Of a DNA stretch of 64,000 bases, positions 1,815-45,663 are shown piece by piece. Source of the DNA: Candidatus Omnitrophota bacterium (GTDB taxonomy: Bacteria; Omnitrophota; Omnitrophia; Omnitrophales; JACROU01). The stretch lies in assembly GCA_029261035.1 (NCBI GenBank), contig JAJDCD010000023.1:301126-365125 (forward strand), given 5' to 3'. Every line of letters starts with the position of its first letter. Positions within the stretch are counted from its first letter, which is position 1. Position numbers and translations under genes: made by a program. Under the pieces are notes generated by a model. That model was not told the DNA's origin. It was given only the letters and a program-made list of their open reading frames with translations, and made no database searches.

Positions 1815-3179
1815 TTAGAGTTCTATAATGGGGTCAGGCTTATGAATCGCCAGAAACTGCCCCATAGAAGCATTTAGTTCTTCCTTAACACGGGTTAGTT
1901 TTCGACGGCTTTTAGTCTCGTACAAACACCAAGACTTAAAAGAACTGCGGACGAGATGGAGTTGATATAAATTCTTCCATTGTTTGGAAGGAATAGAATA
2001 AAGCCCTTTCAGCTCTTCGAATTTTCTCTTACTTTTCCACAACGGAATTCCTAAAAAAGAACTTCTTTTTTCTGCGATGTGACTTTCTGGAAAAAGGTGG
2101 ATAGAAGAGTGGCTTAGTATTGCGATTCCTAAAAAGACAGATGTTAGAGCGGGCATAAAATAAATCCAGTTCCAATTGTCTTTTTCTAGGAATGGAAATG
2201 AGATCCAAGGGAAGACACCCAATCGACTAACAAGTTCTGCAGTAGGATAAGGGAAGAAGCTTAAAAATAAAGAAACAAAAAACATCAGAGCAATAATTAA
2301 GTGAAGTTTAAAAGAAAAAGAGGGTGAAGATACAACACTATCTTTTTCAATGCGTACATGGGGCTTTGGAAGCAGAGGGGCTTTAAGTTTCAATTTGTAT
2401 TTTGCTTTACTCATCTCTTTTGTGATTTTTCTTTGCACTTTTTTAATAGGAACATCGTGTTGAAATTCTCCGTGCGAAGCAATGGAAACCTCTCCGGTAT
2501 CGCCAGAAACAATAATCACAAGAGCATCTGTTTTTTCAGACAAACCTAATCCAGCGCGATACCGAGCTCCTAAAGATTCTGAAACTTCATGATTTTCCGA
2601 TTCGGGAAACACACAACGACAAGCTGCAATTCGTTGATGGGCGATGATAACCCCACCTTCATGAGTAGGAGCGTCCGGAGTAAAAAGGGAAGAAAGAACT
2701 TCTTTTGTAATTTCCCCCTTAACTAAAATTCCAGATTCAATATATTTAGAGAGAGAAATGTGTCTTTCAATAGCAATTAAAGCACCGGTCTTATTTTTAG
2801 AAAGCAATTTTACTGTTTGTTGAATTTCGGAGGCAACCCGAGAGAAAAAAAGTTTTCCAATATATTCTTTTCTCTTTCTTTCAAATCCATGAATGAAAGG
2901 ACTAATAACAAAAAAACCCATTACTAAAGAGACCAACAAAATTCGCTTCTCATTTGTTTGTTGCCACAGATCAAATTCCCAAATAATAGGAGCGAGAAAA
3001 ACAGCAGAAGAAGCTATCAAAAGAAGTGGAGTGATCCACGTTTTACGAGTCAGAATATAGCGAGTACAAAAAAGGGCTACCAATAAGGTAATAAGGCACT
3101 GAATCCCTAACGTATAATTTGGATTACTAAAAGACCATGTTTCAAGCGTCATTCTAAACAATCTCCTTTTCAAATCCAT
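1815..3179 (-). CDS. dacA: Membrane-anchored diadenylate cyclase (c-di-AMP synthase, DacA/CdaA type) with an extra C-terminal transmembrane region
   Basis: N-terminal transmembrane helices are followed by a DAC/DisA_N core (ALIAIERH..., HEGGVIIA, GARYRAGLG, equivalent to DGA/RHR motifs). The roughly 170-aa C-terminal extension carries more transmembrane segments. Confidence 0.7.
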   Translation of the reverse strand: MDLKRRLFRMTLETWSFSNPNYTLGIQCLITLLVALFCTRYILTRKTWITPLLLIASSAVFLAPIIWEFDLWQQTNEKRILLVSLVMGFFVISPFIHGFERKRKEYIGKLFFSRVASEIQQTVKLLSKNKTGALIAIERHISLSKYIESGILVKGEITKEVLSSLFTPDAPTHEGGVIIAHQRIAACRCVFPESENHEVSESLGARYRAGLGLSEKTDALVIIVSGDTGEVSIASHGEFQHDVPIKKVQRKITKEMSKAKYKLKLKAPLLPKPHVRIEKDSVVSSPSFSFKLHLIIALMFFVSLFLSFFPYPTAELVSRLGVFPWISFPFLEKDNWNWIYFMPALTSVFLGIAILSHSSIHLFPESHIAEKRSSFLGIPLWKSKRKFEELKGLYSIPSKQWKNLYQLHLVRSSFKSWCLYETKSRRKLTRVKEELNASMGQFLAIHKPDPIIEL

Positions 3180-3484
3180 TATATCGTCTAAACAGCTATG
3201 AATGTTTAATTTAACCTTTTAATTGTGATTCTGAGTGCAGCCGAAGGCCCTTGAGAAAGGAACTATCTGTGCCACCCCCTCCTTAGAGAGGAGAGGGGAT
3301 TTGGTCTAGGGCTCCTTGATTTCGTGGTTATGGGAGCTTTACTAGGGGTTTCCTCGTTTTTCCCCTTGAAAGGCGGGGGGTGTAGGCGTATACTAACCTA
3401 TCTTTAGATATGGATATCTTGCCGGTTTATCTCAAGGTTTTTGAGGTTTTTAATTAACAATTAAATAATAAGGGAGTACAAGAG

Positions 3485-4768: not shown

Positions 4769-4885
4769 CTGTCATTGCGAGACTTCAACAATAAGGTCGC
4801 GGTAATCTCATACATCGGAAAGATAGAAGCAAAACCGTTTGCATGAGATTGCCACGGCCCTTATGCAGTAGCCTCGCAATGACGG
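4769..4885. repeat. Family A nested inverted-repeat element (about 115 bp, MITE/REP-like)
   Basis: Outer arms GTCATTGCGAG / CTCGCAATGAC. Inner arms GCGGTAATCTCAT / ATGAGATTGCCACGGC. Confidence 0.8.
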
Positions 4886-6814: not shown

Positions 6815-6899
6815 ATGTCATCCTGAGTGTAAGGAAGGATCTAAGACAAATTTTAAAGTCATTATAGATTTCTCGTCGTTATAATCCTCAAAATGACAA
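6815..6899. repeat. Family B element
   Basis: TGTCATCCTGAG ... GGAAGGATCT ... GATTTCTCGTCG ... CTCAAAATGACA. Confidence 0.75.
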
Positions 6900-17160: not shown

Positions 17161-18273
17161 TTAATTTTTAACTTTCGATCTTTTCTGGCAATCTTCGATA
17201 TTTTTTAAGGGACAGAAACTTTGGATGATAGCGTCACTGCAGCTGTAGTGATAAGGGTAGGAGTGGAAGTAAGCAGAGGTGATGATGTTGTTTAATTCCT
17301 TGTCCGAAAGTCCTACGCGTTGTTTGTGATTCCATGAGTGCATTAATTTTTCTGAGTCTTCTTGGTTTAAACCATTTCTTCTAAATTCTGATACTAATCG
17401 AATAGCACAATTATTACGAAAACCTTTTTCAATAGACGAATGTAAAATTTGCAACATTCCTGGACATAAAAAAACTTCGGGGTCTTTACCTAACTTTGCC
17501 TTGATGGGATAGCGAAAAGGTTTCTTTGTGATTTGCCGCACAACTCTTTTAGATCGGTAGAAGATGCGGGAAAGCGTTGGGTTTTCATCGATATGTTTTA
17601 TTCTAGAGACGAGACCCGAATCGTCCGTAAAATGAAGTTCGTGAGGGTAGGTTGCTTTTTCTAAAATGTCTTTAGTAGAAAATTGAAATAGTTCTTCGGG
17701 AAGTAGTTGAACTTTATATTTCTGAGTTTTTTGGTTTTTGGTGTTTGGCAAACGAAGCAAACGAACTTTATCTTTGATGGTAAGATCAAAAATATTTTGC
17801 TCTATTTCAGGCATTTGTAATAAGATTTCTTTTCTAAATTGAGAGAAAGTAATATGTAGATTTTTTGACGGGGTGATGTGTCCTAAGACCCTTGTATCTA
17901 ACATAAAATGAAAACCTTTAGCCCCACTAAAGTAAATTAAACAATCCTCTGCATTAAGGCCGCAATGAGAAAAGAGCATGTTGGCAAAAATACGTGCTTG
18001 ATCTAATGCTTTTTCCAAATCTTGAGAATCTAAATCAAAGGCTAGAAAAGTGGCCCATACTTTCCCGTCATATCCGCCAATCGAAGGACGTCCTTTGTTG
18101 AGATGCATTTCCATATAAGTGAGTATTTCTGGAGGAAAGAAAAAGCAAGATGCGTGACATTCATAATTTTTATAAGATTGAATAAGGTGAGGGATTTCCT
18201 GTAAGGGTACGATGTGATTTCGAAACCCCTTTTGGTGCTGTGCGGCAAATTCCACCAAATGATAGCGTCGCAT
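17161..18273 (-). CDS. Archaeo-eukaryotic-type primase-polymerase (Prim-Pol/AEP) with a PriCT-like C-terminal domain
   Basis: AEP motif I FLAFDLD, motif II FSGAKGFHFMLD, motif III DLTIKDKVRLLRLPNTKN. C-terminal Cys...FRNNCAIRLVSEFRRNGLNQEDSEKLMHSW is PriCT-1-like. Confidence 0.65.
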   Translation of the reverse strand: MRRYHLVEFAAQHQKGFRNHIVPLQEIPHLIQSYKNYECHASCFFFPPEILTYMEMHLNKGRPSIGGYDGKVWATFLAFDLDSQDLEKALDQARIFANMLFSHCGLNAEDCLIYFSGAKGFHFMLDTRVLGHITPSKNLHITFSQFRKEILLQMPEIEQNIFDLTIKDKVRLLRLPNTKNQKTQKYKVQLLPEELFQFSTKDILEKATYPHELHFTDDSGLVSRIKHIDENPTLSRIFYRSKRVVRQITKKPFRYPIKAKLGKDPEVFLCPGMLQILHSSIEKGFRNNCAIRLVSEFRRNGLNQEDSEKLMHSWNHKQRVGLSDKELNNIITSAYFHSYPYHYSCSDAIIQSFCPLKNIEDCQKRSKVKN

Positions 18274-18333
18274 TTGAGACCCTCGTGGTTACAAAATAAG
18301 TATAACAGGTGGGAGGGGGGAATTGTGGCGGGG

Positions 18334-18412
18334 GCGTCGTCGGAAGAGTTGTTCCCGCAGCTCAGACAGCACAAAAGCAAAAGCCGCTTTTGTGAACTCG
18401 CTTCGGAAACAA
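18334..18412. repeat. Family C palindromic element (partial)
   Basis: GTTGTTCCCGCAGCTCAGACAGCACAAAAGC ... GCTTTTGTGAACTCGCTTCGGAAACAAC. Confidence 0.7.
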
Positions 18413-18453
18413 CTCCTCCTCCTTGTGGAGCACAATTTTGAGGGTGGAGGAGT

Positions 18454-18518
18454 GACAATTATTGGCATCGAGCCAATAATTGTTATAGGGTAACAGTATC
18501 GTCACATGTGTGACGATG
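18454..18518. repeat. H1 (CATCGAG-loop hairpin) plus H2' (CGTCACATGTGTGACG) modules
   Basis: ATTATTGGCATCGAGCCAATAAT ... ATCGTCACATGTGTGACGAT. Confidence 0.7.
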
Positions 18519-18725
18519 CTCTTTTGATGGTTTGAATAGCCTGGGCCCTTTATGCATACAGGCAGGCAAGGGTGTTTGGCCTAAATACCCTCTCGGCTTT
18601 ACAATCTGGTAGGGGGAGAGTATACTTATTTGTAAAGAACTGTAACTCTTTATTTGGTGATATGTTAACGAGTTGCTGGGTGATATGAAAGGATTAGGGG
18701 TAGATTTTTTACCCTCATAAACTAT

Positions 18726-19127: not shown

Positions 19128-19186
19128 GAATCGGTTGCTTATAGCTGTCAGCCATTAGCTCTTAGCTTTTAGTAAATCATTCAAAT

Positions 19187-19285
19187 TTGTCTTTGCGAGG
19201 CTAGTAACAAAAAGGGCCACGGCAATCTCAGGTTTTCTATACCTGAGATTGCCGCGGCCCTTTTGTTTAATGACTCGCAATGACT
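19187..19285. repeat. Family A element
   Basis: TTTGCGAGGC ... CCACGGCAATCTCAGG ... CTGAGATTGCCGCGG ... CTCGCAATGAC. It abuts the fabI stop. Confidence 0.8.
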
Positions 19286-19293
19286 GATTCTAA

Positions 19294-20215: not shown

Positions 20216-20258
20216 TTAGCGGATAGCGTTTAGCGTAGAGCGGATAGGAAAATCTTTG
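20216..20258. repeat. Family F direct-repeat module (AGCGGATAGCGT...TAGAGCG...ATAGGAAAA)
   Basis: TTAGCGGATAGCGTTTAGCGTAGAGCGGATAGGAAAATCTTTGTC. A second copy lies at 25538-25586. Confidence 0.65.
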
Positions 20259-20345
20259 TCATCCCCGGCTTGATCGGGGATCCAGTGTCTTTGTTGTATC
20301 TGCTTACAAAATAAAACCTTTTGTCTATCTGGATCCCGCCATGCC
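20258..20345. repeat. Family B-variant (TTTGTCATCCCCGG type) composite hairpins upstream of ispH
   Basis: TTTGTCATCCCCGGCTTGATCGGGGATCC ... GGATCCCGCC...GCGGGATGAGAGG. It overlaps the spurious 5' extension of the ispH ORF. Confidence 0.7.
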
Positions 20346-24527: not shown

Positions 24528-24565
24528 GGTGCGGCTCCTATGTTTATTAAGCGAGATTTTTTAAT

Positions 24566-24647
24566 GCTTACAGCCTGCCCTTTGCCTAGGGGACACACAC
24601 TTTTGTCACAATTACTGTGTAATGGTTACAAAAGTCTATGTCCCCGA
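24566..24647. repeat. Family D palindromic element (about 85 bp)
   Basis: TTACAGCCTGCCCTTTGCCTAGGGGACACACACTTTTGTCACAATTACTGTGTAATGGTTACAAAAGTCTATGTCCCCG. Confidence 0.8.
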
Positions 24648-24660
24648 CTTCCTTTTCGCT

Positions 24661-25537: not shown

Positions 25538-25586
25538 CTAGCGGATAGCGTAGAGCGTTTAGGGTATAGGAAAAACTTCTTTTGTC
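25538..25586. repeat. Family F module
   Basis: CTAGCGGATAGCGTAGAGCGTTTAGGGTATAGGAAAAACTTCTTTTGTC. Confidence 0.65.
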
Positions 25587-25628
25587 TGAGATTGTCACGG
25601 CTCATATATCTTTGCCTCACAATGACAA
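25584..25628. repeat. Family A half-element (right half only)
   Basis: TCTGAGATTGTCACGGCTC ... GCCTCACAATGACA. Confidence 0.6.
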
Positions 25629-26320: not shown

Positions 26321-26424
26321 TTGGGTCCTTTTTAAGCCTTGCTTTTAGAGATAAGTTCTTTGATAATAACGGCACGCAGGTGGCTGTCACTTTAGTGACT
26401 GTCACCGTTTATTTAAGTATTTTA

Positions 26425-26532
26425 ATGGGTACAGCCTTTCCTTTGTCTAGGAGACACGCACTTTTGTCACAATTGCTGCCCGCCAACAAGGCGGCGGACA
26501 AGCGTAATGGTTCCAAAAGTCCACGTCCCCGG
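26425..26532. repeat. Family D element with a CCGCCAACAAGGCGGCGG insertion in the loop
   Basis: GGGTACAGCCTTTCCTTTGTCTAGGAGACACGCACTTTTGTCACAATTGCTGCCCGCCAACAAGGCGGCGGACAAGCGTAATGGTTCCAAAAGTCCACGTCCCCGG. Confidence 0.8.
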
Positions 26533-26575
26533 TTTTGCTCTTCATTAAAGCTTTTATTTAAAAAAAGGAAATAAT

Positions 26576-29437: not shown

Positions 29438-29556
29438 TTTGTCATTGCGAGGCATTTGATAATTGAGCCGTGGCAATCTAGAATACTGTAATTACAAGAA
29501 TACACCCTTTGTCTGAGATTGCTGCGGCTCTTTATGTTTACGCCTCGCAATGACGG
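29438..29556. repeat. Family A element
   Basis: GTCATTGCGAGGC ... GCCGTGGCAATCTAG ... TCTGAGATTGCTGCGGC ... GCCTCGCAATGACGG. Confidence 0.85.
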
Positions 29557-29677
29557 ATGCGGGGTTGGTCACTCCATGTACTAGATAAAGCATGTACTAG
29601 TTTTCGTCTCTTTTGGGAGGGGGCTTAAGAGTGTTCCTAATTATATAGCTGTTAGGCCGCTTTTATGAGAGTCGGAG

Positions 29678-33344: not shown

Positions 33345-33452
33345 AGTCATTGCGAGGCAAAGACAAAATAGCCGTGGCAATCCCAGAAGTAAGGAGATTT
33401 ATCTTTTATCTGAGATTGCCACGGCGTATGAGTCGGATGCCTCGAAATGACA
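33345..33452. repeat. Family A element
   Basis: GTCATTGCGAGGC ... GCCGTGGCAATCCCAG ... TCTGAGATTGCCACGGC ... GCCTCGAAATGAC. Confidence 0.85.
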
Positions 33453-33465
33453 AACTCTTTTCATC

Positions 33466-34860
33466 ATGAAAACTTTCCACAAACAATTCTCTTTTGATTC
33501 TATATCTCCTTTCAATTTTTTCTATCATTTTACGCAAGCAAAAACCCGAATTTTTTTGGATAGCCCAGAAGAAAATAAATTAGGGCAATACTCTTATGTG
33601 TTGTGGGACGAGATTGCTTCTTTTGCTTCTAGAAAAAATAAAATTGAAATTGAAAGTAATAATAAAGTAACAAAGCTAACGAAAGAACCCTTCTCTCAGC
33701 TTCAGTCATTTTATAAAAAATATCAAAAAACAAAAAAACAGCCGAAATCTTTTTTCACAGGAGGGCTTGTCGGGTACTTGTCTTATGAAGTAAATGGAAC
33801 TTTTGAAACTCTCCCTAAGCCTAAAGAAGATAAAGAATTAGAGTTCCTGCCAGACATTTATTTTATAGTTCCAAAAAATGTTGTCGTATTTGATCACTTT
33901 AAAAATAAAATACATTTATTCGTCCATGGCACAGCCGAGGAAAAAACAAAGCAAGAGTTTGAGTTTTTAATTAGGAGCATAAAAGAGTATTTAAAAGGAA
34001 CGCTCAGATCAAATTTTAATGGCAAGTCTGTTTCAATATCTAATCTAAAGCCACAGATTAAAAAACCGCATTTTAAACGAATGGTTCAAAAGGCTAAGAG
34101 CTATATTGCTGCAGGTGACATTTATCAAGCAAATCTATCTCAACGATTTTCATTTGACCACAAAGGCTCTTTGTTGCGGCTATATCAAAAATTAAGAGAA
34201 ATTAATCCTTCTCCTTTTTCCTCCTATTTAGAGACAAAAGATTTTACGATTGTAAGCTCTTCTCCAGAACGTTTGGTGCGAGTGGAAAAAGGTGTTTGTG
34301 AAACGCGGCCTATTGCTGGGACACGCCGACGTGGAAAAAACAAGAAGGAAGATGGAAAGCTTTCCAAAGAGTTACTCTTAAATGAGAAAGAACAAGCAGA
34401 GCATTTGATGTTGGTGGATTTAGAAAGAAATGATTTGGGGAGAGTATGTGATTTTAATACGGTACATGTAGACGAGTGGATGACGTTAGAAAAATATTCT
34501 CACGTGATTCATATTGTTTCCAATGTAAAAGGGAAGCTTTCTAAGAACAAAAATAATTTTGATGTGATTCGCACCATGTTTCCAGGAGGGACAATTACGG
34601 GATGTCCTAAGATTCGATCCATGGAAGTGATTCATGAATTGGAGCCTACAAAAAGGAGTTTGTATACGGGATCTATTGGTTATATCGATTTTAGTGGGTT
34701 GATGGATTTGAATATTGTGATTCGGACGATTCTTTGCTCTAAGAAGAAGGGGTATGTGCAGGTGGGGGCGGGAATTGTGCATGACTCGGATCCGGAGAGG
34801 GAGTATGAGGAGACGCTTCATAAGGCGGAGGCGATGTTTGAGGCGTTGAGGGGGAGTTGA
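33466..34860 (+). CDS. pabB: Aminodeoxychorismate synthase component I (chorismate-binding enzyme family)
   Basis: PIAGTRRRG, LMLVDLERNDLGRV and FPGGTITGCPK motifs. It is followed by pabC. Confidence 0.75.
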   Translation: MKTFHKQFSFDSISPFNFFYHFTQAKTRIFLDSPEENKLGQYSYVLWDEIASFASRKNKIEIESNNKVTKLTKEPFSQLQSFYKKYQKTKKQPKSFFTGGLVGYLSYEVNGTFETLPKPKEDKELEFLPDIYFIVPKNVVVFDHFKNKIHLFVHGTAEEKTKQEFEFLIRSIKEYLKGTLRSNFNGKSVSISNLKPQIKKPHFKRMVQKAKSYIAAGDIYQANLSQRFSFDHKGSLLRLYQKLREINPSPFSSYLETKDFTIVSSSPERLVRVEKGVCETRPIAGTRRRGKNKKEDGKLSKELLLNEKEQAEHLMLVDLERNDLGRVCDFNTVHVDEWMTLEKYSHVIHIVSNVKGKLSKNKNNFDVIRTMFPGGTITGCPKIRSMEVIHELEPTKRSLYTGSIGYIDFSGLMDLNIVIRTILCSKKKGYVQVGAGIVHDSDPEREYEETLHKAEAMFEALRGS

Positions 34861-34871
34861 TGTTGAAGTGG

Positions 34872-34977
34872 GTGCTCAGAGAATGTTCTCCGGCGCTCAG
34901 ACAGCACAAAAGTGACTGTCACCTAGGGTGACTATCACTTTTGTGAACTCGCTGCGGAGAACATTCTCTGAGCACTT
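34872..34977. repeat. Family C palindromic element (about 100 bp)
   Basis: GTGCTCAGAGAATGTTCTCCGGCGCTCAGACAGCACAAAAGTGACTGTCACC TAGG GTGACTATCACTTTTGTGAACTCGCTGCGGAGAACATTCTCTGAGCAC. Confidence 0.9.
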
Positions 34978-35007
34978 CTATTATTCGCTGGGGGTGTGTT
35001 AGGGCGT

Positions 35008-35081
35008 TGAAAACAAGAACGCCATCGAGGGTTCTTGTTTTCTTGGCATAAGGTGTTTCGTTATTGTGTAAATAACGAAAC
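35008..35081. repeat. H1 plus H2 modules downstream of a C element
   Basis: GAAAACAAGAACGCCATCGAGGGTTCTTGTTTTC ... GTTTCGTTATTGTGTAAATAACGAAAC. Confidence 0.8.
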
Positions 35082-35174
35082 GCGTTTTTGTTTTTGGAGT
35101 TTAGATTTGTTTCAGGGATAAAGGCGCTTGTTATTTGGAAGAGATTGTTAGGATTTAGTGAAGACAAAGAATAT

Positions 35175-35216
35175 TTGTCATTGCGATACGGCTCTTTGGT
35201 TGTGCCTCGCAATGGT
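35175..35216. repeat. Family A remnant (outer arms only)
   Basis: TTGTCATTGCGATACGG ... GCCTCGCAATGG. Confidence 0.55.
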
Positions 35217-35236
35217 TATAAGAAAAGGAGCTCGGG

Positions 35237-36064
35237 TTGAGGGTTTATTTGTTTCGGGATGAGACATTGGTGGATGTGGATAGGGTTGAGGGGGTGGATT
35301 ATTTTGAGGGGCCTTCTTTTAATGTGTTTGAGAGCATTCGTACTTATGGGGGGATTCCGTTTCAACTTGAAGAGCATTTACAGCGGTTGAGGGAATCGTC
35401 TGTTACTTCAGGTCTTGAGTTAAAAGATGCGGCTTCTGAGCTTAAGAAGAAGGTAATGGCTTGTTTAAAGCAGGTTCCTAGAGGTGATTATTTTATTCGC
35501 TTAACGTTAACTCCCAAACATTTTTGGATTCTTTTTCTTCCTGAGAAGAAGAGGGACAAAGCTATTTATCAAAAGGGTGTTTCCGTTCGGACAGCCCCTA
35601 CAGTAAGACATTCTTCGCATAGCTCTTATCCGGGAGTGAAGAGTTCTAATTTTCTAAATCAGGTGTTGGGCACTTTGGATATGGGAAAAAAAGAAGTTTT
35701 TGAGATTATGTTTCTGTCTCCTTCAGGAGAGCTTCAGGAGGCGAGAACCTGGAATTTTTTTCTTATTAAGAAGGGCACTTTGAGAACACCTGATTTACCA
35801 GGGATCCTGGGTGGAGTGACCCGTAAGTTTGTGATAGAATTAGCCTCCATTTTAAGTATTCCTGTTGAGGAGACAACGTTGAGTCGAGCGGACGCTTATA
35901 ATGCGGATGAAGCTTTTTTGACGAATACTTCAGGTGAGATTGTTCCCATTCAAGAGTGGGATGGTAGAAAGATCGGAAATGGAAAGTTGGGACCTTTAAC
36001 TAAAAGTTTAACAAAGAAATATAAGCAAGAAGTAAGGAATTGGGTGAAGCGGAATGAAAAATAA
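35237..36064 (+). CDS. pabC: Class IV aminotransferase, probably aminodeoxychorismate lyase
   Basis: FETIRTYGG..PF.LEEHLQRL is a fold-type IV PLP enzyme signature. It overlaps purH by 11 bp. Confidence 0.6.
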   Translation: MRVYLFRDETLVDVDRVEGVDYFEGPSFNVFESIRTYGGIPFQLEEHLQRLRESSVTSGLELKDAASELKKKVMACLKQVPRGDYFIRLTLTPKHFWILFLPEKKRDKAIYQKGVSVRTAPTVRHSSHSSYPGVKSSNFLNQVLGTLDMGKKEVFEIMFLSPSGELQEARTWNFFLIKKGTLRTPDLPGILGGVTRKFVIELASILSIPVEETTLSRADAYNADEAFLTNTSGEIVPIQEWDGRKIGNGKLGPLTKSLTKKYKQEVRNWVKRNEK

Positions 36065-37625: not shown

Positions 37626-37718
37626 TTGTCATTCTGAGCATAGCGAAGAATCTCAGACAAATAGCATATCATCCTAATCCATTTAGATTCTTCGTCGTTA
37701 CACTCCTCAGAATGACAA
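37626..37718. repeat. Family B element
   Basis: TTGTCATTCTGAGC ... GCGAAGAATCTC ... AGATTCTTCGTCG ... CTCAGAATGACAA. Confidence 0.85.
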
Positions 37719-37757
37719 ACAACTTAAAGGCTTATCAAGCGCTATAAACAGGACATC

Positions 37758-39214: not shown

Positions 39215-40603
39215 GTGCCCAATATTAATTTAGATGACACGATTGCTGCTATATCAACCCCTATTGGTGAAGGGGGGATTGGCATTGTCCGTATGAGCGG
39301 GCCTCAAGCTATCGAAGTAAGTGATGTTTTATTTAAAGCGAAATCCGGGAAAGCATTAGCAAAGGTAAAACCTTTTACGGTGCATTTTGGATTTGTTATG
39401 GATGATGAACGGGTTGTTGACGAAGTGCTGGTTACCGTGTTTAAGTCTCCAAAATCATATACAAGCCAGGACATGGTTGAGATTTCAAGCCATGGAGGGA
39501 TTGTGGTTACCCGTAAAATTTTAGACCTTATTTTCAAACAAGGAATTCGTGCTGCAGAACCCGGAGAGTTTACCAAACGAGCGTTTTTAAGTGGAAGATT
39601 AGATTTAACTCAAGCAGAAGCGGTGTTGGATGTGATTCAAGCAAAGACGGATGCGAGTTTGTCTGTCGCACAAGAGCAGCTTAAAGGGAGTTTGTCGAAA
39701 AAAGTTAAAAGTATTAAGGACAAGCTGATGCATGTCTATGCGCATGTGGAAGCGTTTGTGGATTTTCCTCAAGAAGATTTGGAAGTTTATTCTCAAAAAG
39801 AGGTGATTGAAAAAATAAAGGAAGTTGAGAGTGAGATTAACGAGCTTTTATTGAGTTATCAAAAAGGGGAAATTGTTCGCGAAGGAATACTGAGTGTTAT
39901 TGTGGGCCGTCCTAATGTTGGCAAATCTTCTCTTCTAAATGCGTTACTGGATAGAGATCGCGCTCTTGTTTCGGATGTTCCTGGAACAACACGAGATGCG
40001 CTAGAAGAGATGATTGAGTTAGAGGGCATTTTGTTTCGGTTGTGTGATACGGCTGGGCTTGGGGTTTTTGCGGACAAGATAGATACGTTGAGTATGGAGA
40101 GAACGAAGAAGTATTTAGATCAAGGCAATGTCTTTCTCTGGGTTTTAGACTCTTCAGAAGAGTTTAAAGAAGAAGATAAGAATATTGTGGCGATGGTTAA
40201 AAACAAAAAAGTAATTCCCGTTTTGAATAAGAGCGATCTTCCAGCACAATGGAAGTGGGAAGAGGTTCAAAAACAGTTTCAGATGGATGTGGAGCCGGTG
40301 CTTATTTCTGCTAAGAATAGAGAAGGGTTGAGCGAATTGGAAAAGCGAATGAAAGAGTTGGTTTGGGAGGGAAAAGTTACTACCGAAGGTATTGCGGTAA
40401 CTCGGGTGCGGCATAAAGCGGCATTGGAACAAGCTCTTATTGATTTGGCTCAGGCGGGGGTTGTGTTTCAGAATAAGGATTCTTTGGAGTTTTTGACGTT
40501 TAATATTAAGGCGGCTTTGGATTCTTTGAGTGAGTTGATTGGGGAAGTTTATTCTGAGGATTTGTTGGATGTTATTTTTGGGGAGTTTTGTATTGGGAAG
40601 TAA
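39215..40603 (+). CDS. mnmE: tRNA modification GTPase MnmE (TrmE)
   Basis: N-terminal THF-binding domain, G-domain GRPNVGKSSL / DTAG, and the C-terminal CIGK tail. Confidence 0.9.
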   Translation: MPNINLDDTIAAISTPIGEGGIGIVRMSGPQAIEVSDVLFKAKSGKALAKVKPFTVHFGFVMDDERVVDEVLVTVFKSPKSYTSQDMVEISSHGGIVVTRKILDLIFKQGIRAAEPGEFTKRAFLSGRLDLTQAEAVLDVIQAKTDASLSVAQEQLKGSLSKKVKSIKDKLMHVYAHVEAFVDFPQEDLEVYSQKEVIEKIKEVESEINELLLSYQKGEIVREGILSVIVGRPNVGKSSLLNALLDRDRALVSDVPGTTRDALEEMIELEGILFRLCDTAGLGVFADKIDTLSMERTKKYLDQGNVFLWVLDSSEEFKEEDKNIVAMVKNKKVIPVLNKSDLPAQWKWEEVQKQFQMDVEPVLISAKNREGLSELEKRMKELVWEGKVTTEGIAVTRVRHKAALEQALIDLAQAGVVFQNKDSLEFLTFNIKAALDSLSELIGEVYSEDLLDVIFGEFCIGK

Positions 40604-40624
40604 GGGGGTTTATAGTTGGGTTGC

Positions 40625-40710
40625 GGCTAGAGAATGTTCCCTGGCGCTCAGACAGCACAAAAATTGAGAAGCGATTTTTGTGAACTCGCGGCGGGGAACA
40701 TTCTCTAGCC
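40625..40710. repeat. Family C element
   Basis: GGCTAGAGAATGTTCCCTGGCGCTCAGACAGCACAAAAATTG ... TTTTTGTGAACTCGCGGCGGGGAACATTCTCTAGCC. Confidence 0.85.
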
Positions 40711-40742
40711 TTTTAAGTTATAAACTTTGGGTGGGGAGTGTT

Positions 40743-40815
40743 GAAAGCCGGAGCTGCATCGAGCAGCTCCGGCTTTCTTGGTTTAGGGTGTTTCGTTATT
40801 GTGTAAATAACGAAA
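40743..40815. repeat. H1 plus H2 modules
   Basis: GAAAGCCGGAGCTGCATCGAGCAGCTCCGGCTTTC ... GTTTCGTTATTGTGTAAATAACGAAAC. Confidence 0.8.
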
Positions 40816-40907
40816 CTCGTTTTTATTTTTTTGGTTTGGACTTGTTGTAGGGATAAAGGCATTTGTTGAATAGAGGGGTTGGTTTAGGATTTATTAAAGA
40901 TAAAGAA

Positions 40908-40995
40908 TGTTGTCATTCCCGAAATCTTTTGTCGGGAATCCAGGTTGTTTTTGTTTGTGGATCCCCGATAAAAACATTCGGGGATGACAGCCTTA
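40908..40995. repeat. Family B-variant nested hairpins
   Basis: TGTCATTCCCGAAATCTTTTGTCGGGAATCC ... GGATCCCCGATAAAAACATTCGGGGATGACAGC. Confidence 0.7.
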
Positions 40996-40996
40996 C

Positions 40997-43900
40997 CTAT
41001 GCCGCTTGGGCGATTTGTCGTTGGGTGAAGGCTTGGGTGAAGAGTTGTTGTAGGTGGTCGCTTAGCTGTAAGATCCATCGGTCTTTGGCTTTTTTCCAGA
41101 TGCCGAAGAGGTCGCGTTTTCCTTGGAAGAGGAATTCGATGGCTGCTGTGGGAGCGTATAAACTTTGTTCTACACTTAAGATTTCTGTGGTGCTTGCGCT
41201 TACTTCTGTTTGACCCAGTAAGTGGATTGCGTGGGTATTTGTGTTTCGTTTTAAGCGGTGTGCGTAGTCGTTGAGGTGGTCTTTGCTTCCGAATCGAGCG
41301 TTTCCTTCTAATTCAGGAAGCGGGCTCCAGTCGTTTGTCTCTTTGAGAATGAGGATATCTCTTTTCTTTTGTTTGAGATGGTAGTTTAATTCTTCTAGTT
41401 CTGAAGGACTCATTTGTCTTAAGGTTTCGACTGAAATGATAAAGGTTATTTTGTTTTGAAGTTGATCTGCTCGGTTAAAAATTTGAGAAACCTTTCCGGA
41501 GTCTTTTAGTTTCCATGGAAGAGTAATTCCTAAACTAGACCCTTCAGACTTTTCTTTTTCTATTTCTATTTTCTTTATTACTTTTGAAAATTCTTTTCTC
41601 CATGTGGATGTGCCATGAGAAGAGACAAGGCCATACCCGAGAAGCATATTATCTCTTTCCATATCTTTAAGCAGTCTAAAATTTTTAGGATTTCTTATAT
41701 CCTCATCTGTTATAACAAGAAAAAAAGGAGGGGAGTCTATAGTTCTTTTGAATAACGTGGCAAGATCGTAAACGGTTGTATCTGAGGTTAGAAAGCCCGT
41801 AGATACCCCCGTATGAAATAAGGATATGACCAAGTCAAAGGAATCGCTTTTCATGGCTTTGTTGGCATAAACAGCGCTTCCTTTTTCAGCAATTTCAAAA
41901 TCTATTTGTAGATCCGAGCTAATGCGGTCTAAGCCTCTTTTCACTTTTTCTCGTAACTCTTGTTTAACGCCAACAAGAAGAATTTTGTAGCTGGGTTTTT
42001 TCTCTGAGGCATTTCCTAAACTATTTGCATCAGATTTAGGGGGATTTTTTGTTTGTGCATTTGAGCCCCATTTAGGTTTTTTTATCTTTTCAAGGTCATC
42101 AAGAATGGATTTCATTCGACCTGAATCCAGGTTGTGTTTGTGCATGTGGTCGTGATGAGAAGGGGATTCTTCAATTTGAGCTAATTTTTTTTGAAATGCC
42201 TGGATGTCTAGACCTGTCTTTTTTGGACTTTCTGGAGTAAGTATGATTGTTGGAATCTTAATCTCATCATTATCTAAGGTGGATAAAAGGGCATCAGCTG
42301 TGGTGTTCGTTTTAGTCCACCATCCTGTTGTTCCTGTAACAAAATAAGAAATAACAAGGTTGAACGGTGCAGAGCTTCCGTTTGCTTTTTTTATTGCTGT
42401 AACTGCTTTTTTATTCCCTGTTACAGTGACGATTTCAAATTCTCGTCCCAAAATTTGTCCCAACTTTCCAAGTTTTTCTACTATAAAGGGAGTGTCTGTG
42501 TTAAGCCCAACAACTAAAATTTTTTTAACTTGACCTAAACTAGAGGCTTTAATAACTTTGTGCACCTTTACCGTGTTTAAAAATACGATTTTGGTTGCGA
42601 TGGCATCGGGTGTAGAGCGGTGCATACGTGTCTGAACACCGAAAGTGGCAAGTAAAGCGCCGAGATTATGGCTGATGCCGGGATAGAAAGAACGAGAAGA
42701 GCTAAGGGTGTCATAGGCAAAAAAACGGGGTTTGTTTTTTGCTAAGCCGTCATCGGGATTTTCGATTTTAGAAAAGGGAGTTGGAAGTTCAGTTCCTTGG
42801 TTGACGACTTGAATACGAAAAGGGCCTAACCCAAAATGATCCATTTCTCTTTGTATCAGCAGAGAGTCATAAGGGGCGTTGTGCATTACGAGCAATGATT
42901 TTTTGTAACGTTTTAAAAATTCGAGTATGTCTGGAAAAGCCTTTTCCGCTGGAATTCCTTTTTCCAAAATTTCTTTTTTTGTGATCCCTGTAAACTCTTC
43001 AATGTTGAAAGGCATATTGAAATTACCATCGGGTTTAATCAAGAGGGATACGCGCTCAACTTCTTGGAGTCCTTTATAGGCAATCGCGGTAAGCTCTATA
43101 ATTCTTGATTCTCTAATATTAAGGCCAGTGCTTTCTAAATCGATGACTACGTATTCAAGGTCTCGAAGTGTTTCATCTAAAAGAAAATCAGGAAGCGTTT
43201 TGTTTTCAAGTTGAGCTTTATAGTAAGCAAGTTCGATTTCGTTGCTAGGGTCTCTTTGAAGTTTTTCCATAAAGGCTCTCTTGAGAATCGTCATTTTCGC
43301 TAAGAGAAGGCCTTCCACACGAGAGGGAGAGAGTTTCTGAAGGGTATTTCGATATAGTTCTTCAAAGACCAAAGGAGGTAAATCCTTAGGAGGGCTGACC
43401 ATGTTAAATAGGCGGACAACACTGTGGTCACTGACCGGTCTTGTTCGTGGTTTTCTTTCATGCTCTGACCATCGAATGATTTTAGTTTCATTCCCTGGAA
43501 GAACTAAAACGGAATGTTGTTTATTCGTTTCTTTTGGAGTGGAGGGCTTTATTTCAACTTCTTGGACTTGGGGGTCAGATTCAGGAACGAATACAGGAGT
43601 TTTTTCTGATGAGGGTTCTTCTTGAAGAGAAGCTTTTAAAAGGCGATTGATGGCCGCAAATTGTTTTTGTATTTCAACAATGCCTACATTGTCCACGCCT
43701 TTAATGTTTTGCTTGATATAAGGGATGTTGGGGACAAGGATGTTGCCAAACATAATCCCTTGAATCATTTGCCCAATTAAAGGAAAGCCAGCTTCTTTAA
43801 TTTTATTTGAGAAACGGCTTTGAATTCCTAATTCTTCTATTGGCAGATAATGAATTGCTTCAAGTTCTCCTTTTTTTGCAGCACTTTTAAGTTTGCCACC

Positions 43901-45427
43901 TAAAGGTTTACCTAGACTGGCTGCTTTTGTTTGTGCTTGTCTCCAAGCTTGCTGAAACTGTAAGCCTTTGGAATTTAAAAGCACAAATTCCTGAATGGAA
44001 CGAAGTGCTTTTGGAGAGGAAAGCGTTCTAGGGGCTGAAAGTGCAGCTTGCTCTGTAATGGTCCAATCGTCGTTGAGGCGCTTAGAATAAAATCGGTTTT
44101 CTGAAATTTGAGAGATGCGAGGGGAGATGGTGATAAAGGAAAAACCTTTTTCTTCTAATTTTTGTTCTACAAACTCTGTGTGAAAGCCGCCAGTGACAAG
44201 CACGCAGCTTAGTTTGTCGTTGGGAGTTTTGTTTTGTTCTACTTGTACGCGTTTGAAAAACTGATTCATCATGATGCTATCTCTAAGACGTGCTTTTTGG
44301 TAAAAATCATGAACGGCTAAAACAGCATTGTCTGACAAAGATTCTAAAAGAGGAGAGTCTGGAGAGATAAGGTCTAAATCTTTGCGTGTTGCTTTGAGTT
44401 GTAGTGTGTTTTTAATCGATCGAAATGTTTCTAGTTGGTCAAAGAACAGTTGATCTTCTTCTGGATCTAAATAACTTTCTTTTATGTTTTTAACTAAACG
44501 CTCCAGCTCTTCAAAAAGGTGTTGTCCTTGAATTTGTTTTAGTTTTTGTGTCAATTCCAGCTCGCTTCTAAGCTGAGGGGCATTGGCGAGGTCATCTTCT
44601 GAAATCTGTTCTCCTAATTGTTTTGCTTCTCCTAGAGTTAAGCCTAAGGAGCTGAGTTCTTGATCTAACTTTCCTTTATCTGCAAAAGCTTGCAATTGTT
44701 GTATCTTGCGAAATAAGGTTAAGTTCCGGTAGGAAGAGCTGGCGATGCTTTTGCTTTCTGCGTCAGCGAGAACGGACTCTATATAAGTTATCAGATCTAT
44801 TTTTTCTGCTTCAAATTTTCTTTCGTTGTCATAAAGAGAATTCAGTTTATCCGAGAAACGACTCTTCCTTTCTTTTTTTAATTGTTGTTCTTTCTGAATG
44901 ATGAACTGCATGATATCTGCTTGAAAAGAGCGAGCGTTGAAATACGCTTGTCTGTTTTGATTATATACTTCAGCATCTTCGAGACCAAAAAAAGAATAAT
45001 TAGAATCTGTGGTAGCAGCTAAGCTAACCCCATCCATAAGAAGATTGTCTAAGAGAAAACCGGCGATTGTTTCAAAGTTTTTATTTTTAGATAAGATTTC
45101 TAATGAGTCGGTGTAAAGTTCTCCAGAAGCTCCTTCAGCCATAATCAGATTGGTACCGAGTCGAGAGTGGAGGAAATCAATGATGTTAAAGATATTGCGA
45201 TGAGCTTCGGGTTGATCATGAGCCTCTTGGATATGAAATATGAGAGGAGCGCCTGGTTTTGAAACATGCATTTTTTTAATCGAACCCCATTCTGTAGGAA
45301 TGGGAGGAAAGGAAAAGCCGCCAACAGAAAGAGTGGCTGCAGGAGCTAGAGGAAGCTGTAAACCCATCATGGATATCATGATGAGAGAACAAGTAAGTTT
45401 TTTAAGTAGTTGTGACTTTTTGATCAT
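40997..45427 (-). CDS. Giant (about 1477 aa) secreted multidomain protein with an embedded DnaQ-like DEDDh 3'-5' exonuclease domain, paralog of 11304-17150
   Basis: Track ORF is 40997-45679. The probable start is the ATG at 45427 (MIKKSQLLKK... signal peptide), because upstream codons run through a C-family repeat. N-module motifs are LIFHIQEAHDQPEA and LVTGGFHTEFV. The exonuclease motifs Exo I VVIDLESTGL, Exo II LLVMHNAPYDSLL and Exo III MHRSTPDAIAT sit at about 42578-43160. Two internal roughly 90-aa repeats. C-terminus ...QAFTQRQIAQAA. Confidence 0.8.
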   Translation of the reverse strand: MIKKSQLLKKLTCSLIMISMMGLQLPLAPAATLSVGGFSFPPIPTEWGSIKKMHVSKPGAPLIFHIQEAHDQPEAHRNIFNIIDFLHSRLGTNLIMAEGASGELYTDSLEILSKNKNFETIAGFLLDNLLMDGVSLAATTDSNYSFFGLEDAEVYNQNRQAYFNARSFQADIMQFIIQKEQQLKKERKSRFSDKLNSLYDNERKFEAEKIDLITYIESVLADAESKSIASSSYRNLTLFRKIQQLQAFADKGKLDQELSSLGLTLGEAKQLGEQISEDDLANAPQLRSELELTQKLKQIQGQHLFEELERLVKNIKESYLDPEEDQLFFDQLETFRSIKNTLQLKATRKDLDLISPDSPLLESLSDNAVLAVHDFYQKARLRDSIMMNQFFKRVQVEQNKTPNDKLSCVLVTGGFHTEFVEQKLEEKGFSFITISPRISQISENRFYSKRLNDDWTITEQAALSAPRTLSSPKALRSIQEFVLLNSKGLQFQQAWRQAQTKAASLGKPLGGKLKSAAKKGELEAIHYLPIEELGIQSRFSNKIKEAGFPLIGQMIQGIMFGNILVPNIPYIKQNIKGVDNVGIVEIQKQFAAINRLLKASLQEEPSSEKTPVFVPESDPQVQEVEIKPSTPKETNKQHSVLVLPGNETKIIRWSEHERKPRTRPVSDHSVVRLFNMVSPPKDLPPLVFEELYRNTLQKLSPSRVEGLLLAKMTILKRAFMEKLQRDPSNEIELAYYKAQLENKTLPDFLLDETLRDLEYVVIDLESTGLNIRESRIIELTAIAYKGLQEVERVSLLIKPDGNFNMPFNIEEFTGITKKEILEKGIPAEKAFPDILEFLKRYKKSLLVMHNAPYDSLLIQREMDHFGLGPFRIQVVNQGTELPTPFSKIENPDDGLAKNKPRFFAYDTLSSSRSFYPGISHNLGALLATFGVQTRMHRSTPDAIATKIVFLNTVKVHKVIKASSLGQVKKILVVGLNTDTPFIVEKLGKLGQILGREFEIVTVTGNKKAVTAIKKANGSSAPFNLVISYFVTGTTGWWTKTNTTADALLSTLDNDEIKIPTIILTPESPKKTGLDIQAFQKKLAQIEESPSHHDHMHKHNLDSGRMKSILDDLEKIKKPKWGSNAQTKNPPKSDANSLGNASEKKPSYKILLVGVKQELREKVKRGLDRISSDLQIDFEIAEKGSAVYANKAMKSDSFDLVISLFHTGVSTGFLTSDTTVYDLATLFKRTIDSPPFFLVITDEDIRNPKNFRLLKDMERDNMLLGYGLVSSHGTSTWRKEFSKVIKKIEIEKEKSEGSSLGITLPWKLKDSGKVSQIFNRADQLQNKITFIISVETLRQMSPSELEELNYHLKQKKRDILILKETNDWSPLPELEGNARFGSKDHLNDYAHRLKRNTNTHAIHLLGQTEVSASTTEILSVEQSLYAPTAAIEFLFQGKRDLFGIWKKAKDRWILQLSDHLQQLFTQAFTQRQIAQAA

Positions 45428-45546
45428 AAGCGTATGACTCAATAGTCTTCCGTGAAGGGATTTTTCTGTCCGTGAGCTAACTATCCTAGTCGAGATTGTT
45501 TGGCTGGTCAAGGGGATTGATGGGGGCGCGTATAGGGGCCGTTGTT

Positions 45547-45628
45547 GGCCATAGGATGTTCTCCGGCGCTCAGACATGCTCGTCTGGAAAAAGACTGCGC
45601 AACTCGCGGCGGAGAACATCCTATGGCC
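45547..45628. repeat. Family C element (divergent core)
   Basis: GGCCATAGGATGTTCTCCGGCGCTCAGACATGCTCG ... GCGCAACTCGCGGCGGAGAACATCCTATGGCC. Confidence 0.8.
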
Positions 45629-45663
45629 TTTTATGTTATACGCTGAGTGGGGGTTAGAGGGTT

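Follow-up and report, generated by a model that had tools for sequence, protein, structure and literature searches.

In a Candidatus Omnitrophota bacterium (contig JAJDCD010000023.1, positions 301,126 to 365,125; this 64-kb stretch, analysed as a whole, is called the window), the gap between pabB and pabC is filled by a series of hairpin-forming modules that recurs at other intergenic sites. We found this ordered unit in six intact copies and one chimeric copy, on the + strand throughout and spaced 2-17 kb apart among housekeeping genes. These modular hairpin-forming intergenic DNA repeats are a family without earlier description. An original prediction, made from the sequence alone, had listed six copies of an ordered, modular recurring unit of strong hairpins; all six are present where it placed them, and motif counts, folds and a covariance model of the first hairpin, module A (model R1), bore out the design. 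The six intact units are named 34872, 40625, 47776, 18334, 45547 and 54457 and the chimera 59060, and statistics were computed on the seven module A copies of the window and one homologue from outside it (L106).

34846..35158 (+), long-form reference unit in the pabB-pabC gap (copy 34872), R1 score 92.3 bits
TTGAGGGGGAGTTGATG (+), leader of copy 34872, overlapping the pabB stop
34872-34975 (+), module A of copy 34872, from folds and pair counts
35009-35042 (+), module B of copy 34872, with the loop CATCGAG at 35023-35029
35055-35081 (+), module C1 of copy 34872, followed by a T-run
35115-35125 to 35148-35158 (+), tail D of copy 34872, from GGGATAAAGGC to TTAGGATTTAG
40600..40893 (+), long-form unit 3' of mnmE, facing the 3' end of a − strand 1560-aa gene (copy 40625): A 40625-40710, B 40743-40777, C1 40790-40816, D 40850-40893
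47745..48066 (+), long-form unit in the divergent region between a GT2 gene (−) and a PIF1 helicase gene (+) (copy 47776): A 47776-47871, B 47914-47947, C1 47961-47987, D 48023-48066
18312..18530 (+), short-form unit in the divergent region between a primase gene (−) and an ACT-domain gene (+) (copy 18334): A 18341-18420 with three mismatches in its outer stem P1, B 18453-18485, C2 18495-18520 (ATCGTCACATGTGTGACGAT + CTTTTG)
45520..45745 (+), short-form variant between two − strand genes (copy 45547), R1 score 61.6 bits: A 45547-45628, B 45663-45697, C2 45710-45729 (CGTCACCTGTGTGACG)
54448..54660 (+), short-form unit between cysG-like and ccsA-like genes, both + (copy 54457): A 54456-54541, B 54575-54611 (loop CATTGAG), C2 54630-54653
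59040..59215 (+), chimeric copy 59060: leader, 5' half of A and inner hairpin (59066-59156), then sequence of a second family, F, from CACTTTTGT

GCTCAGACAGCACAAAA occurred six times, on the + strand only, against 0.18 expected from shuffles of the window, and the 23-nt C1 palindrome three times against 0 expected. TTTTGTGAACTCGC had five exact matches in the window and CGTCACATGTGTGACG three; four exact matches of GCATCGAGC each stood in register 3' of module A, with the variants GCCATCGAGG in copy 34872 and ACATTGAGT in copy 54457, and the three matches of GGGATAAAGGC were confined to the long form. Run over the window, R1 matched exactly the six intact copies (62-92 bits) and one further site that the original prediction had overlooked, a degenerate module A at 59083-59166 (23.2 bits, model positions 17-73); no other module A was found in the window even with filters off.

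Whole-unit alignment separated two forms. The long form consists of leader, A, spacer, B, C1, T-run and tail D (34872, 40625 and 47776), and the short form of leader, A, spacer, B and C2 (18334, 45547 and 54457). The G-rich leader is the true left part of the unit and extends it ~25-30 nt to the left of the starts first proposed; 13 of the 52 occurrences of GGGGG in the window (overlapping matches counted) lie in or beside the elements. The leader of copy 34872 overlaps the final pabB codons and stop, and those of copies 40625 and 59060 begin at the upstream stop codon. Open reading frames (ORFs) over the element are spurious, with reading frames that differ from copy to copy.

Module A and the pairing of its arms

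Anchoring on the invariant TCAGACA and AACTC gave a gap-free register for every copy of module A. Read from the outside inwards, an outer stem (17 to >30 bp) is followed by a mismatch, either G.G or 2x2, and a GC:GC step; the TCA bulge of 3 nt comes next, then a GA:TC step, the internal loop CAG/AAC (3x3), the inner stem CACAAAAG/CTTTTGTG and finally a tip of variable length. In the reference copy 34872, the outer stem P1 spans 25 bp, the mismatch is 2x2 (GC/TG), and the inner stem is CACAAAAG.../...CTTTTGTG; copy 45547 has the core TCAGACA / AACTC with a different inner stem. Conservation peaked at the centre of the hairpin (alignment A2, columns 15-32 and 68-82), where an asymmetric core of ~35 nt is near-invariant between copies, and was lowest at the stem base. 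Compared by eye, the core did not fit a k-turn, a sarcin-ricin motif, signal recognition particle (SRP) RNA, group II domain V or attC.

Standard pairs were formed by 97.9% of module A cells across the seven sequences, compared with 78% in shuffles and 42-56% in slid controls. Stems were found to co-vary around conserved loops, as had been described in the original prediction, with changes on both sides in 17 of 29 pairs of module A (39 cells) and in 10 of 14 pairs of module B, whose stem is closed by G-C around the loop C-ATCGA-G and had 84.5% of cells paired in a strict gap-free register. Random substitutions had been put forward as the pattern that would suit a purely selfish or neutral element; the changes were compensatory instead, and the module A level was reached in 0 of 500 shuffles. 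Mean pairwise identity among the six full copies was 0.52-0.59 for leader, stem arms and A-B spacer (0.57-0.59 for the inverted arms of A), 0.84-0.86 for the A core and 0.95 for the B loop. Hairpin arms have thus diverged as much as unpaired spacers, yet pairing is kept in each copy, and the low identities indicate that the copies are old and diverged rather than fresh transposition products.

Only 1 of 194 module A cells was a G-U pair, despite the G+T-rich strand. Folding z-scores were −9 to −10, and under RNA as under DNA parameters the folds of the reverse strand were about equal to those of the forward one (z −8 to −13); for module A of copy 34872, DNA parameters gave z = −12.5 on the + strand and −10.8 on the − strand. 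Helices kept solely as RNA usually tolerate wobble pairs. Complementarity restricted to Watson-Crick pairs is expected if both strands fold, as in a cruciform, or if a DNA hairpin is the active form, and it is also expected from intra-strand template switching in quasi-palindromes. Because pairing is almost purely Watson-Crick and both strands fold equally well, co-variation is not proof of RNA structure here; the pattern speaks for palindrome maintenance at the DNA level no less than for RNA selection, and the hairpins are probably upheld at the DNA level. The original prediction had read structural selection from the co-variation; the co-variation is confirmed, and as proof of an RNA structure it found no support. 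Since template switching would tend to erase asymmetry, the bulge and internal loop of A would be under separate purifying selection, and in the simplest case they would form a protein recognition site.

Mosaic composition, strand and genomic context

Long and short forms differ by an exchanged 3' module, C1 with tail D in one and C2 in the other, and the modules occur as composites of the BIME type, with A+B+C1+D three times, A+B+C2 three times and one chimera of A and F. Copy 59060 turns into family F sequence past its inner hairpin; the switch falls at the motif CACTTTTGT, which both share, and identity to 26440-26535 is 79%. The long A tips of copies 34872, 47776 and 59060 share CCTAGGG..GAC...CACTTTTGT with the 5' arm of F. 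These sequences show that the unit recombines with family F, whose copies read TTAATGGGTACAGCC...TAGGGGACACGCACTTTTGTCACA...CAAAAGTCCATGTCCCC:

24554-24656 (+), family F copy
26415-26545 (+), family F copy with an extra insert in the tip
51266-51368 (+), family F copy
59238-59340 (+), family F copy

The F hairpin repeats the design of module A: its outer stem is G-rich and 7 bp long, its 3x3 internal loop is conserved, and its inner stem is A/T-rich.

The window has a G+C content of ~39% and a positive GC skew in every 2-kb bin, such that the + strand would have leading-strand composition by the usual bacterial rule. All seven A copies and all four F copies lie on this G-rich strand, including two that stand between − strand genes (45547 for A and 24554 for F). 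Orientation fits the chromosome strand better than it fits transcription, although the test is a weak one. Four of the seven A copies start ~10-35 nt 3' of the stop codon of a + strand gene, and the other three are downstream of no co-oriented gene. Copies 34872, 54457 and 59060 lie between two + genes, copies 18334 and 47776 between divergent gene pairs, and copy 45547 is antisense to both of its neighbours. Several copies had been thought to sit between convergent genes, which applies to copy 40625 only (1 of 7). The 49 long ORFs of the window encode housekeeping proteins or had no assignment in a Pfam scan, and no tRNA gene was found in the window.

We compared the locus with four related Omnitrophota loci (MnmE identity 62-75%), in all of which the gene order DUF1015, Band7, Band7, pabB, pabC, purH, folC, mnmE is kept. 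The gap between pabB and pabC is 24, 25 or 33 nt or an overlap in these relatives, compared with 377 nt, filled by the element, here, and R1 found no module A in the fetched loci. Absence of the element at syntenic sites of relatives indicates lineage-specific insertion; on this comparison, the units entered intergenic gaps after the lineage split from its sequenced relatives. The interval 3' of mnmE carries different cargo in each relative. The closest of them (L103) lacks the 1560-aa gene, which here has copy 40625 on one side and copy 45547 on the other, and the elements of the window lie at the edges of conserved gene blocks. The gap 3' of mnmE in L103 is 730 nt of non-coding sequence with unrelated long palindromes such as CCCCACCTCGGGGTATGTTTTTGCTGC...GCAGCAAAAGCATACCCGCTCGGGGGG (11375-11450 and 11640-11690), and related genomes may have hairpin repeat families of their own.

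Scanning JGI metagenome contigs with a gapped 22-base pattern of module A returned one true homologue (L106) and one chance match in a coding region (L107). L106 is a 3.3-kb contig of 61% G+C, assigned to Planctomycetota by the relatives of its FadL-like gene. Its core CTCCGGCGCTCAGACAGCAC ... GTGAACTCGCAGCGGAG equals that of copy 34872 at all but one position, and its outer stem, of >30 bp and GC-rich, is wholly unlike the Omnitrophota arms. The core match cannot be chance and reflects either transfer between phyla or strong conservation of the core. The hairpin begins 13 nt 3' of the stop of an upstream gene whose product, by our own reading of the translation, presumably ends like isoleucyl-tRNA synthetase; a protein search with this C-terminal IleS fragment returned no matches. 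Modules B, C and D were absent from L106, and a tRNA gene follows ~320 nt downstream of the hairpin (L106 832-906). The left leaders of L106 and copy 45547 aligned with a score of 31, in the top 0.1% of 80-mers of the window and tied by an unrelated coding locus, so that this resemblance is suggestive only. At the far end of the contig lies a cobalamin riboswitch (2977-3237, 67.5 bits). Module A was not found in two relatives of the L106 organism (L121 and L122), whose contigs are not syntenic upstream.

Viral contigs gave no matches to the gapped A pattern, C1 or C2, and eight matches to a 17-mer of the A core, none of which was confirmed by the model; a blastn search of plasmids with the unit found no match. 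The 16-mer CTCAGACAGCACAAAA was too short a pattern for 596 Gb of genome contigs, where all 102 matches were due to chance. Literature searches returned only unrelated primers for the core sequence and nothing specific on Omnitrophota repeats. An exact look-up of the FolC protein of the window returned nothing, and its MnmE had an identical counterpart on a Logan contig (L105; SRR15505518, 1594 nt). This contig ends ~70 nt past the module A hairpin 3' of mnmE, which suggests that the repeats may fragment short-read assemblies and be under-counted in metagenome contigs.

Origin and possible roles

In kind, the unit is best read as a mosaic palindromic intergenic repeat like REPIN, BIME, BOX or Correia elements. 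REPINs and REP/BIME repeats, with their RAYT transposases, are likewise multi-copy extragenic palindromes with long hairpins, form mosaic composites mostly just 3' of genes, are regarded as non-autonomous and as mobilised in the form of folded single strands, and occur in the PVC superphylum (Bertels & Rainey 2011, PMC3116915; PMC3337134; Nunvar 2010, PMC2817692; PMC3733652). REPINs have two conserved REPs of 20-40 nt at their base, whereas module A spans ~80-115 nt with a conserved centre and variable stems on either side. Length, the central conserved part and the lack of a consistent GTAG or CGTC tag ruled out a strict REP or REPIN; a GTAG stands ahead of the module A stem in L106 and, at a distance of 11 nt, in copy 54457, and in no other copy. 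REPs alternate in orientation within BIMEs, unlike the A, B, C and F modules here, which are all on the + strand, and no RAYT (Y1 HUH transposase) gene was present among the 49 long ORFs. Pneumococcal BOX (boxA-boxB-boxC), Correia elements of Neisseria and enterobacterial ERIC are ordered modular intergenic units of 100-300 bp with strong predicted hairpins, for which effects on termination or mRNA stability have been proposed; these families keep conserved terminal inverted repeats, with TA duplications in the case of Correia elements. Their likeness to our unit is one of modular hairpin design, judged by description and not by sequence, and they differ in that the arms here are hypervariable and only internal-loop nucleotides are fixed.

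Two systems that act as folded single strands offer further parallels. Integron attC sites are imperfect palindromes that keep structure and a few unpaired bases while their stems vary widely in sequence and length, with an orientation tied to the lagging-strand template; module A is a palindrome of this kind and may have such an orientation. An attC identity was rejected: there are no R''/R' sites (RYYYAAC ... GTTRRRY), the P1 base differs in every copy, the outer stem, at 17-30 bp, exceeds the 7 bp of attC, and neither a cassette array nor an integrase gene lies in the window. The conserved unpaired bases, to be set against the L boxes of attC, are TCA and CAG/AAC inside the 17-30-bp stem. 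PATEs, which derive from IS200/IS605, have no terminal inverted repeats and make no target duplication; their hairpins are read in single-stranded form, the orientation in which they insert is coupled to the direction of replication, and two similar small subterminal hairpins mark the left and right ends. This last feature ruled out a PATE, since no two of A, B, C1 and C2 are related in sequence; nor was a conserved tetra- or pentanucleotide target or, in the window, a TnpA or TnpB gene found.

We favour, with a probability of roughly 55%, a non-autonomous element of DNA-level origin, with the module A core as the means of its recognition; copies that were retained may have been co-opted to act as 3'-end cassettes. 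Module A would be the recognised unit, either as a folded single strand or as a cruciform, and a protein acting in trans and encoded elsewhere would read its bulge and internal loop, which are invariant; the most economical guess is a transposase or recombinase specific for hairpins. Action on the lagging-strand template would account for the uniform + orientation on the G-skewed strand, and arm complementarity could be kept by selection for the hairpin, by intra-strand template switching or by both. Retained copies may then serve + strand transcripts, with A as a stable hairpin and B and C as U-tract terminators.

Several observations weigh against this reading. No direct repeat was found at the edges of the alignable block, whose ends are not base-exact, and the empty sites of relatives are too diverged to align. 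The copies are strongly diverged and show no sign of recent movement, and the persistent structure of each copy could equally mean a host function without mobility. The Pfam scan of the 49 long ORFs in the window detected no transposase, integrase or HUH enzyme. The orientation argument draws on 11 elements, while ~80% of the genes in the window likewise have + orientation and its skew does not switch, and the cross-phylum claim depends on a single outside homologue on one 3.3-kb contig. B and C are terminator-like in copy 18334 too, though it has no upstream + strand gene.

The leading alternative, a possible but rather unlikely one, is that the unit is primarily RNA, a module of 3' untranslated or intergenic regions in which A is a protective or protein-binding stem-loop and B and C act as Rho-independent terminators or make up a small RNA's body. 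Modules B, C1 and C2 each form a G+C-containing stem-loop with a T-run after it on the + strand only, and a consensus terminator scan picked up module B at 40743-40777, 47923-47939 and 54586-54600, C1 in all three long forms (35053-35083, 40790-40816 and 47959-47989) and C2 in copy 18334 (18495-18520), all on the + strand. The start of four of seven copies and of L106 shortly after a co-oriented stop, the folding z-scores of −9 to −10, and loop and bulge sequences that are conserved while stems co-vary would also suit such a role. In contrast to plain Rho-independent terminators, B and C are repeated conserved sequence families with a fixed loop that always stand 3' of module A, even without an upstream co-oriented gene. 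Copies 18334, 45547 and 47776 follow no + gene, one of them being antisense to both neighbours; together with the scarcity of G-U pairs on a G+U-rich strand and the equally good folds of the reverse strand, this argues against a primarily RNA element. No conserved promoter was found upstream of A in the window copies. An Rfam search, which the original prediction had suggested, returned no match at gathering score for the whole window, and in E-value mode the best hit for 34860-35240 was a microRNA model on a generic hairpin (E = 0.85).

A narrower role for B and C, as terminators or stabilisers of + strand transcripts, is plausible from sequence for the four copies 3' of + genes. Because B and C are also present without an upstream + gene, termination cannot account for every copy. 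The proposal that the units are termination modules at operon 3' ends thus retains the resemblance of B and C to + strand intrinsic terminators and loses generality, with three of seven copies downstream of no co-oriented gene.

A broader version of the favoured element is also conceivable, if unlikely: module A may be a structured nucleic-acid motif common to at least two phyla (Omnitrophota and Planctomycetota) whose fixed core is read by an undescribed hairpin-specific enzyme. Module A would then be the cis-acting part of a new system that transposes or recombines single-stranded DNA, or else a new class of protein-binding RNA.

We consider it improbable that the hairpins are a host signal in single-stranded DNA, folding on the lagging-strand template as a priming, primosome-loading or recombinase site. 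The uniform orientation on the G-rich strand, Watson-Crick-only pairing with equally good DNA-parameter folds and invariant unpaired nucleotides within the hairpin would all be expected of such a signal, and copies abut genes for an archaeo-eukaryotic-type (AEP) primase (PriCT_1), a PIF1 helicase and the 1560-aa protein with a DEDDh exonuclease domain. This adjacency concerns three loci and may be coincidence, and absence from syntenic Omnitrophota loci makes a core replication role unlikely. We know of no similar system documented for chromosomes, which we also count against a host signal.

[quoted passage not shown] It is very improbable that the unit is an insertion sequence with an internal deletion, whose terminal inverted repeats a DDE transposase binds and which creates target-site duplications. 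The unit is small, non-coding, multi-copy, intergenic and absent from relatives, but the inverted repeats that it has form the arms of hairpin A, inside the unit, and the two ends of the 200-300-bp unit are unrelated (on the left a G-rich leader, on the right GGATTTAG or C2). No duplication is visible beside the alignable block, and copies share only ~55-60% identity outside the cores. As arm sequences differ between copies, the arms of A cannot be a common terminal repeat bound by a transposase.

Interspersed palindromic repeats break assemblies, mark rearrangement points, end transcripts and are substrates of hairpin-specific transposases. To our knowledge, nearly all that is known of them comes from Proteobacteria and Firmicutes, and the present family would be the first described from uncultured Omnitrophota. 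Its design is unusual in combining fixed unpaired nucleotides in the middle of the hairpin with freely co-varying arms restricted to Watson-Crick pairs, and a Planctomycetota genome that differs greatly in base composition has the same core. A cognate protein, if one exists, would have a new hairpin-recognising activity; if none exists, the family would still be a natural example in which selection on structure could be told cleanly apart from the self-correction of palindromes.

Other repeats and genes in the window

The tails of copies 34872 and 40625 are directly abutted by REP-like hairpins with a TGTC tag, four of which were found:

20257-20285 (+), TGTC-tagged hairpin
35176-35217 (+), TGTC-tagged hairpin with a longer, 18-nt loop
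40911-40943 (+), TGTC-tagged hairpin
40961-40993 (−), TGTC-tagged hairpin

Hairpins 20257, 40911 and 40961 have an 8-bp stem starting with AT, a loop of 5-9 nt and a CCAG or CCAC tail, for example TGTCATTCCCGAAATCTTTTGTCGGGAATCCAG. Unlike A and F, these hairpins occur in both orientations, with an inverted pair around 40940. They fit the description of CGTC-type REPs, which have a tag, an 8-bp stem starting with AT and a CCAG tail and include dRS3 of Neisseria (Di Nocera et al. 2013, PMC3733652).

Further short intergenic repeat families, exemplified by TGTCATCCTGA...AGGATNTNAG and GTCATTGCGAG...GCGGCAATCTCAG, were located at these positions:

1734-1804
4771-4860
6816-6845
9662-9719
19158-19288, including at 19214-19260 a pair that forms a 20-bp hairpin with a T-run on the − strand
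25572-25603
29499-29558
33346-33455
37627-37719

Among the genes that adjoin element copies, the primase gene (PriCT_1 and DNA_primase_S domains, archaeo-eukaryotic type) lies at 17161-18273 (−) and the PIF1-like helicase gene at 48155-49387 (+); no PIF1 gene is found at the latter position in two relatives (L103 and L116). The window also encodes two very large proteins, of 1948 aa (11304-17150, +) and 1560 aa (40997-45679, −), which by eye appear to share an N-terminal H[IL]Q[DE]AH..PEA and a C-terminal AQAA. The 1948-aa protein had no Pfam match, and the 1560-aa protein has a DEDDh (RNase_T) exonuclease domain at residues 844-1033. Downstream of mnmE in another relative (L118) are ORFs of 2341 aa and >1444 aa, both without Pfam matches. 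The mechanical start of the 1560-aa ORF at 45679 overlaps B and C2 of copy 45547, and a Met near 45427, followed by the hydrophobic MIKKSQLLKKLTCSLIMISMMGL, looks like the real start of this gene.

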